From Escherichia coli O157:H7 (GTDB taxonomy: Bacteria; Pseudomonadota; Gammaproteobacteria; Enterobacterales; Enterobacteriaceae), in NCBI RefSeq assembly GCF_013167455.1, contig NZ_CP038328.1: a stretch of DNA of 64,000 nucleotides; one strand, given 5' to 3'. Made by a program: the position numbers. Every line of letters starts with the position of its first letter. Position 1 is the first letter of the stretch. Shown piece after piece: positions 61,871 to 64,000 of the stretch.

Positions 61871-64000
61871 TAGTTTGTACACCGTCCGATACTCAATCGC
61901 CAAAAAGAAAAAAGCCAGCAGATAATCACTGCTGGCGTGGCGATTAACACCAATACTCAGTCACACATGATGTCCGCAAATCAGTAGTCAGAATGACTCC
62001 CCTCCCACTGCATCAGTTCTTCAAGCATGGTTAATCGTTGTGGGACGCTTAACCAACGCAACCAGCACAACTTCGCTGTCGCGGTAAAATAGTGCTGATA
62101 AAACTGACGAATGGGGCACCTCCTTGCTTCATCGTTAGGAATTATTGACTTAATATAGGGAAAATAAAATTGCTGTCTTTTGCGCAGGAGTTCCCCTTTT
62201 ATGCCATCTGCTCGTCTGCAACAACAGTTCATCCGCCTGTGGCAATGCTGCGAGGGTAAATCGCAGGACACAACGCTCAACGAACTGGCAGCGTTATTGA
62301 GCTGCTCGCGTCGTCATATGCGTACCCTGCTCAACACCATGCAGGATCGCGGCTGGCTGACGTGGGAAGCGGAAGTCGGGCGTGGTAAACGCTCGCGTCT
62401 GACATTCCTCTATACCGGGCTGGCGCTTCAGCAACAGCGGGCGGAAGACCTGCTGGAGCAGGACCGTATCGACCAACTAGTGCAGTTAGTTGGCGACAAA
62501 GCGACTGTGAGGCAAATGCTGGTTTCTCATCTGGGCCGCAGCTTCCGCCAGGGGCGGCACATCCTGCGCGTGCTCTACTATCGTCCGTTGCGTAATCTGC
62601 TACCTGGCAGCGCATTGCGCCGTTCCGAAACCCATATCGCCCGGCAAATCTTCAGTTCGCTAACGCGCATAAATGAGGAAAATGGGGAACTGGAAGCAGA
62701 CATCGCCCACCACTGGCAGCAAATATCACCGCTTCACTGGCGTTTCTTTTTGCGTCCAGGAGTCCATTTTCATCATGGTCGTGAACTGGAAATGGACGAC
62801 GTGATCGCCTCTTTAAAACGAATCAATACGCTGCCGCTCTATTCGCATATTGCTGACATTGTGTCGCCGACGCCCTGGACGCTGGATATCCACCTCACGC
62901 AGCCGGATCGCTGGTTGCCGTTACTGCTGGGACAAGTTCCGGCGATGATCCTGCCGCGCGAATGGGAAACCCTCAGTAACTTTGCCAGCCATCCCATCGG
63001 CACCGGTCCGTATGCGGTGATTCGCAACAGCACCAATCAACTGAAAATTCAGGCATTCGATGACTTCTTCGGTTACCGGGCATTAATCGATGAAGTTAAC
63101 GTCTGGGTTCTGCCGGAAATTGCCGACGAGCCAGCCGGAGGGCTGATGCTAAAAGGTCCACAGGGCGAGGAAAAAGAGATTGAAAGCCGCCTGGAGGAAG
63201 GTTGCTACTATTTACTGTTCGATAGCCGCACCCATCGCGGGGCGAATCAGCAAGTCAGGGACTGGGTAAGCTATGTGCTTTCTCCAACTAATCTGGTCTA
63301 TTTCGCTGAGGAACAGTACCAGCAACTGTGGTTCCCGGCTTATGGACTGCTCCCCCGTTGGCATCATGCCCGCACCATAACGAGCGAAAAACCGGCTGGT
63401 CTGGAAAGCCTCACCCTGACCTTTTATCAGGATCACAGTGAGCATCGGGTGATTGCCGGGATCATGCAGCAGATTCTGGCAAGCCACCAGGTCACACTGG
63501 AAATCAAAGAGATCAGCTACGATCAGTGGCATGAAGGAGAGATCGAGAGCGATATCTGGCTTAACAGCGCCAACTTTACGCTGCCGCTGGATTTTTCGCT
63601 GTTCGCGCACCTGTGCGAGGTACCGCTGCTCCAACACTGTATTCCAATCGACTGGCAAGTCGACGCCGCCCGCTGGCGCAATGGCGAAATGAACCTGGCG
63701 AACTGGTGCCAACAACTGGTCGCCAGCAAAGCAATGGTGCCACTTATCCACCACTGGCTGATCATTCAGGGACAACGCAGTATGCGCGGCCTGCGCATGA
63801 ACACCCTCGGCTGGTTTGATTTTAAATCAGCGTGGTTTGCGCCGCCGGATCCAGAGTAGCTTGCGCCTTTTGGCGGTCATGAGCGCATTTTTTATATTCA
63901 GACGGAATGATAAAATACATTACTTTTATATTTTCTCTGTTTTATGCATCGTCTGATTAGCGTCGCAAATAAGATTAAAGAAGGGGCATTCCAGCCCCTC

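Follow-up and report, generated by a model that had tools for sequence, protein, structure and literature searches.

In Escherichia coli K-12 the glucose-phosphate stress locus is sgrR-sgrS(sgrT)-setA (Vanderpool & Gottesman, 2004; Sun & Vanderpool, 2011; PMC9765468; PMC4509938), in which setA codes for a sugar-efflux transporter of the MFS, a member of the SET family (SetA/SetB/SetC). The gene order in strain MG1655 is sgrR, sgrS/sgrT, setA (1179 bp, with its start 27 nt after sgrS) and the convergent leuD, and transcripts that continue past the sgrS terminator carry setA along with sgrS (PMC9765468; PMC4509938). The same interval was analysed in K-12, CFT073 and O157:H7 Sakai by Horler & Vanderpool (2009; PMC2760817), whose Fig. 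2 displays the synteny from sgrR to leuD with setA marked where it is present, although the lack of setA is not taken up in its text. SgrS of the CFT073/O157 type is 88% identical to K-12 SgrS, and the O157 form differs from that of CFT073 by a mutation in the sgrT start codon (PMC2760817). González-Alba et al. (2019; PMC6896753) subsequently reported that the “AB1 sublineage acquired setA”, and that phylogroups E, D, F, G and B2 do not have the gene. SgrS in EHEC was the subject of a 2026 paper, which makes no mention of setA. The setA-less allele and its distribution are, then, already known (PMC2760817, Fig. 2; PMC6896753).

The DNA analysed here (‘the window’) is a 64-kb stretch of E. coli O157:H7, and the features around its sgrS–leuD junction are given in Table 1. 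The leuD reading frame closes with a TAG codon (61871-61873) after a LeuD C-terminus of ...PAFMR, and sgrS is convergent with it, such that 33 nt separate the 3' end of sgrS, as placed by Rfam, from the leuD stop. The gap shrinks to 28 nt if the extended T-run is counted as part of sgrS, and grows to 40 nt if the measurement begins at the base of the terminator hairpin. In K-12, as in other Enterobacteriaceae, the place of this 33-nt spacer is taken by the setA leader, the 1179-bp coding sequence and the setA terminator. Pairwise alignment with K-12 showed that this whole setA segment is missing from the window. Moreover, tblastn with K-12 SetA detected no SetA-like coding sequence in the whole 64 kb, and no setA is present about 27 nt past the sgrS terminator, where an sgrS-setA operon of the K-12 type would place it.

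Table 1. Features of the sgrR–sgrS–leuD interval (positions in the 64-kb window)
Feature	Coordinates	Strand	Evidence
leuD (last gene of leuABCD)	61268..61873	+	ORF; tblastn 99.5% to K-12 LeuD
Spacer, 33 nt, putative deletion junction	61874..61906	.	Pairwise alignment with K-12
sgrS, O157/CFT073-type allele	61907..62133	-	Rfam RF00534, 228.1 bits, E 6e-65
sgrS intrinsic terminator hairpin, 8-bp stem, 7-nt loop	61914..61936	-	Terminator scan
SgrS base-pairing core CATCATGTGTGACTGAGTATTGGTGT, same as K-12	61947..61972	-	Alignment; invariant columns 1-26 of alignment A2
sgrT frame, 43 codons + stop, ATT start	61981..62112	-	Sequence; RefSeq CDS at equivalent position
sgrR-sgrS divergent control region	62134..62200	.	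One base from K-12 (C vs T), alignment A1
sgrR, transcriptional activator of sgrS	62201..63859	+	tblastn 98.7% over 551 aa to K-12 SgrR; RefSeq

An initial annotation of the window, made from the sequence alone, had claimed that no setA lies between sgrS and leuD, and both the K-12 alignment and the tblastn search of the window bear this out. It had also stated correctly that K-12 carries setA immediately downstream of sgrS (27 nt) and transcribes it by terminator read-through; the observation that it named as capable of overturning the claim, namely an identical leuD-sgrS spacing in K-12, was looked for and does not hold. Its gap of about 28 nt corresponds to the distance from the end of the extended T-run to the leuD stop, and its description of the locus as sgrR-sgrS only is accurate for the O157:H7 window. 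The terminator hairpin, which it had placed at 61915-61935, was one base off at each end.

The identity of the small RNA gene is clear. The Rfam match is full length (model positions 1-232) and scores 228.1 bits (gathering score, 37), the gene is divergent from sgrR, and it carries the 3' pairing core and a terminator with a poly-U tail. The terminator stem-loop reads GCCAGCAG/CTGCTGGC and is followed directly on the sgrS strand by UUUUUUCUUUUU, the complement of 61902-61913. In comparison with the K-12 locus, sgrR, the control region (one base off), the pairing core, the type of terminator and the flanking leuD are all alike. The window differs in having no setA, in a 3' 112-nt portion of sgrS that is ~25% diverged, in an ATT start codon for sgrT, in a slightly stronger predicted terminator stem (-15.5 kcal/mol, against -13.2 in K-12) with a U tail of 6U-C-5U rather than 8U, and in a leuD that ends in R/TAG rather than N/TAA. 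In the leuD sense the sgrS hairpin has no U-tract. No sequence difference was found from the CFT073/O157:H7 Sakai SgrS described previously (PMC2760817), and the window carries that allele.

The sgrT start codon (62110-62112, - strand) is ATT, not ATG, while the 43-codon frame behind it is intact. This is a known O157:H7 mutation, and the literature presumes that no SgrT is made in O157:H7 (PMC2760817; PMC4021124; PMC13293527). With this start codon there is probably little or no SgrT in O157:H7. The RefSeq/PGAP annotation calls the ATT-initiated frame ‘glucose uptake inhibitor SgrT’ (WP_001248768.1, an accession also found in IAI39), and a G-to-A change upstream of the sgrT start generates a perfect AGGAGG Shine-Dalgarno sequence. 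A promoter-scan match at 62152-62179 was considered as the -10/-35 of sgrS and discarded, being too far from the sgrS 5' end.

The Rfam scan of the window also returned the Leu leader at 56999-57148, as expected. Matches above the Rfam gathering score were obtained for tp2 (17826-17939, + strand) in the pdhR-aceE intergenic region, for naRNA4 (29214-29291, - strand) and for STnc40 (29694-29763, - strand). PssrA (‘plasmid-encoded Shigella sRNA A’) matched with 105 bits at 35410-35499 (- strand), on the chromosomal ftsA-ftsZ junction and in the gene-sense orientation.

The direction of the change at the sgrS–leuD junction was examined by scanning one genome per species with a degenerate SgrS-core pattern, which yielded 38 loci. 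As judged from tblastn, SetA is encoded directly downstream of sgrS in many species of Citrobacter, in Klebsiella, Raoultella, Atlantibacter and Superficieibacter, and in Salmonella enterica subsp. arizonae and diarizonae, and it lies between sgrS and leuD wherever the outgroup locus is long enough. Indeed, setA has the same place and orientation in every retrieved non-Escherichia enterobacterial locus that extends past sgrS, which argues that setA is ancestral at this site. The Salmonella, Citrobacter, Klebsiella and Atlantibacter loci share the sgrR, sgrS and leuD neighbours of the window, and its terminator region is Citrobacter-like; these loci keep setA, often with REP-like elements, between sgrS and leuD, whereas the window is without setA.

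Within Escherichia, all of the sampled non-coli species but one are without setA by tblastn, and sgrS has leuD as its immediate neighbour in E. albertii, E. whittamii, Escherichia sp. E1V33 and strain SCPM-O-B-8794. Alignment A2 showed that the spacer and the junction are common to the O157 window and to these four other lineages. The simplest account of the same junction in five Escherichia lineages is one ancient deletion, and not an event in O157, with an age that is only bracketed within the genus by the sampled lineages, which do not include E. fergusonii, E. marmotae or E. ruysiae. The end of LeuD also differs between the haplotypes. The protein finishes in ...FMR in setA-less Escherichia, Salmonella and Citrobacter and in ...FMN in K-12 and Atlantibacter; at the corresponding positions (61871-61876) the window has R/TAG as its last residue and stop, Salmonella and Citrobacter have R before stop codons that vary, and K-12 and Atlantibacter have N/TAA.

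The frequency of the two arrangements was determined among 5426 complete E. coli genomes. The 1033-nt stretch covering leuD, sgrS and the start of sgrR matches E. coli O157:H7 chromosomes at 100% identity, and it is present in contiguous, setA-less form (leuD-sgrS-sgrR) in 2159 of the genomes (~40%). NU14, Nissle 1917 and an O2:K2:H1 strain are among these genomes, and identity to the stretch is 99% or higher in 400 records. Most of the other matching genomes have leuD and the sgrS-sgrR part in two separate places (median of two per genome). K-12 setA was found by megablast in 3241 of the 5426, and the two groups together make up nearly all genomes with a match. The same division is seen between individual reference strains, with sgrR-sgrT-leuD in IAI39 and sgrR-sgrT-setA-leuD in IAI1, and the counts agree with the split in the published gene-content reconstruction (PMC6896753). 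The setA-less junction is an old, common E. coli variant. The deletion is not peculiar to the O157:H7 genome analysed here; E. albertii, E. whittamii, other Escherichia lineages and ~40% of complete E. coli genomes share the allele.

The K-12-type arrangement is embedded in a divergent block. Between K-12 and O157 there are 28 differences in the 3' 112 nt of sgrS (~25%), with the seed spared, and seven in the last 40 nt of leuD, compared with about one difference per 100 nt over what remains of sgrS and over the larger part of sgrR. The K-12-type block thus has sharp bounds: it takes in the 3' 112 nt of sgrS, setA and the last codons of leuD. K-12 setA shares 77-80% nucleotide identity with the setA of Salmonella and Citrobacter, which is equal to the value for the neighbouring sgrR; K-12 setA is thus an Escherichia-lineage ortholog and was not imported from outside the genus. 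In the non-coli genome of Escherichia sp. MOD1-EC7003 (L021, a locus that ends inside setA), a K-12-type 3' part of sgrS and a K-12-type setA with 98.9% nucleotide identity are combined with an sgrR of only 91.9%, and the switch point falls near the same place in sgrS as the K-12/O157 boundary. This mosaic shows a recent exchange of the block between the MOD1-EC7003 lineage and K-12-like E. coli, which may have gone in either direction. A divergent Escherichia SetA donor, for example in E. fergusonii, was also sought by protein homology, and all of the at least 120 matches listed were near-identical E. coli SetA.

Sequence flanking this interval is also mosaic. The last ~370 nt of sgrR are ~12% diverged from K-12, marking another boundary, and the window continues 3' of sgrR with an AT-rich segment (63860-64000) that is absent from K-12 and IAI1. 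The segment past sgrR (window 63860-64000; L002 6821-8703; L041 12289-12858) contains espY2, a gene for a type III secretion effector. IAI39 has an intact copy of espY2, and the copy in O157:H7 is split by IS1203. Among the four reference genomes that were compared, those with espY2 are precisely those that lack setA.

Overall, we are confident that setA is ancestral, that it was lost in a single old deletion, and that the setA-less allele has been inherited in Escherichia, including O157:H7. The ancestral arrangement in the Enterobacteriaceae would have had setA directly downstream of sgrS. One old deletion would then have taken out the setA coding sequence together with its leader and terminator, so that the 33-nt spacer remained between the sgrS terminator and the convergent leuD stop. 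The resulting allele would have passed by descent to E. albertii, E. whittamii and further cryptic Escherichia lineages, and likewise to the E. coli lineages represented by O157:H7, NU14/Nissle 1917 and IAI39. The published reconstruction calls setA an acquisition (PMC6896753); the outgroup survey instead puts setA as ancestral at this exact site, and a gain in A/B1 would accordingly have been a re-acquisition by allelic replacement. On balance we favour a re-import of the A/B1 setA block by homologous recombination from a setA-retaining Escherichia lineage, as suggested by the bounded divergent block, the MOD1-EC7003 mosaic, the low diversity of setA and the published AB1 acquisition (phylogroups, A/B1 for K-12-like strains, were taken from strain identities and PMC6896753).

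A different course would be an ancestral polymorphism, in which K-12-like E. coli kept setA by vertical descent and A/B1 took up no re-imported copy; recombination or incomplete lineage sorting would have carried the deletion allele into other E. coli. Two points speak for this course: each terminator haplotype looks old, the K-12 type resembling Salmonella and the O157 type Citrobacter, and K-12 setA is as diverged from the outgroups as sgrR is. However, the diversity of setA is very low, with at least 99% identity to K-12 in 3228 of the 3241 genomes, whereas identity falls to ~96% for the setA-less stretch across the junction, which comprises leuD, the spacer, sgrS and the beginning of sgrR. 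In addition, all other sampled Escherichia species but one are without setA, and the published ancestral reconstruction places the gain on the AB1 branch (PMC6896753). Vertical retention in K-12-like E. coli is for these reasons judged unlikely. A further, highly unlikely reading is that balancing selection has maintained the two haplotypes as a trans-species polymorphism.

It is very improbable that the locus had no setA at first and received the gene as foreign DNA, which would make the K-12 arrangement the derived one and leave nothing deleted. Such an insertion would fit the description of an acquisition by the AB1 sublineage (PMC6896753) and the lack of setA in most Escherichia lineages, but every retrieved non-Escherichia locus reaching past sgrS has setA in the same position and orientation, and K-12 setA is diverged to the same degree as the adjacent sgrR. 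A recent deletion in the O157:H7 lineage, or an assembly collapse in the window, has nothing to commend it beyond the bare absence of setA and can practically be dismissed, because the contiguous stretch is found in 2159 complete E. coli genomes, the junction is present in NU14, Nissle 1917 and IAI39, and four other Escherichia lineages have it as well; misassembly across the junction, which the initial annotation had raised, is therefore not the explanation. A relocation of setA elsewhere in the O157 chromosome, with no supporting point, has a negligible probability, given that the setA-bearing and contiguous-junction genomes account for nearly all genomes with a match and that the window is without a SetA match. 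A sensitive blastn search of setA-less genomes, O157-like ones included, for a SetA ortholog gave only a 148-nt match of 73% identity and 13% coverage, which is the paralog setB. Since setA-less genomes match setB only, setA is absent and not moved, and setB stays. The initial annotation had left SetA as either missing or encoded elsewhere; the former stands and the latter does not.

Returning to the single old deletion as the preferred account, the junction itself does not reveal how it was formed. Local alignment of the spacer (~33-34 nt) with the sgrS-to-leuD intervals of 17 setA-bearing loci gave scores equal to those of shuffled controls. Across these 17 loci and the repeats of the window, neither a remnant nor a diagnostic direct repeat or microhomology that would indicate a deletion mechanism was found, short direct repeats being what the initial annotation had proposed to look for at the junction. 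The spacer does contain a direct repeat that agrees with the SgrS seed complement at 11 of 13 positions (61886-61898 vs 61950-61962), and an 8-nt perfect inverted repeat (61895-61902 / 61938-61945) brackets the terminator hairpin. Repeat pairs of this kind near the junction are at about chance level, with about one expected in a region of this size by our own estimate. The inverted repeat is kept in four of the five setA-less lineages; the remaining setA-less lineages do not conserve the seed-like copy.

SgrS riboregulation should work in O157:H7, because sgrR, the control region (bar one base), the pairing core and the terminator type match those of K-12, which is in line with the literature. 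With no SetA arm, SgrR in the O157 genome would be able to induce only SgrS. Taken together with the ATT start of sgrT, the missing SetA arm suggests that the glucose-phosphate stress response of O157 probably rests on SgrS base pairing alone.

The loss of setA also bears on transcription across the junction. Read-through of the sgrS terminator would run antisense into leuD and would not yield a setA mRNA. Without setA, no structure other than the sgrS terminator hairpin lies between the two convergent transcription units. Since this hairpin has no U-tract in the leuD sense, we speculate that leu read-through could be antisense to SgrS. A more far-reaching proposal is that the leu read-through RNA, being fully complementary to the SgrS seed and terminator, would act as an anti-SgrS sponge, while sgrS read-through induced by stress would be antisense to leuD, so coupling leucine biosynthesis and the response to glucose-phosphate stress in setA-less Escherichia; this is highly unlikely.

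The detail added here is that setA is ancestral at the site, that the junction is common to several Escherichia species and that the K-12-type block is sharply bounded. This refines the published statement of an ‘acquisition’ and opens no new question. For the biology of the organism, it means that models of glucose-phosphate stress built on K-12, with SgrS pairing, SgrT and SetA, transfer incompletely to setA-less E. coli. These strains have at most SgrS and SgrT, and O157:H7 probably has the riboregulator arm alone.
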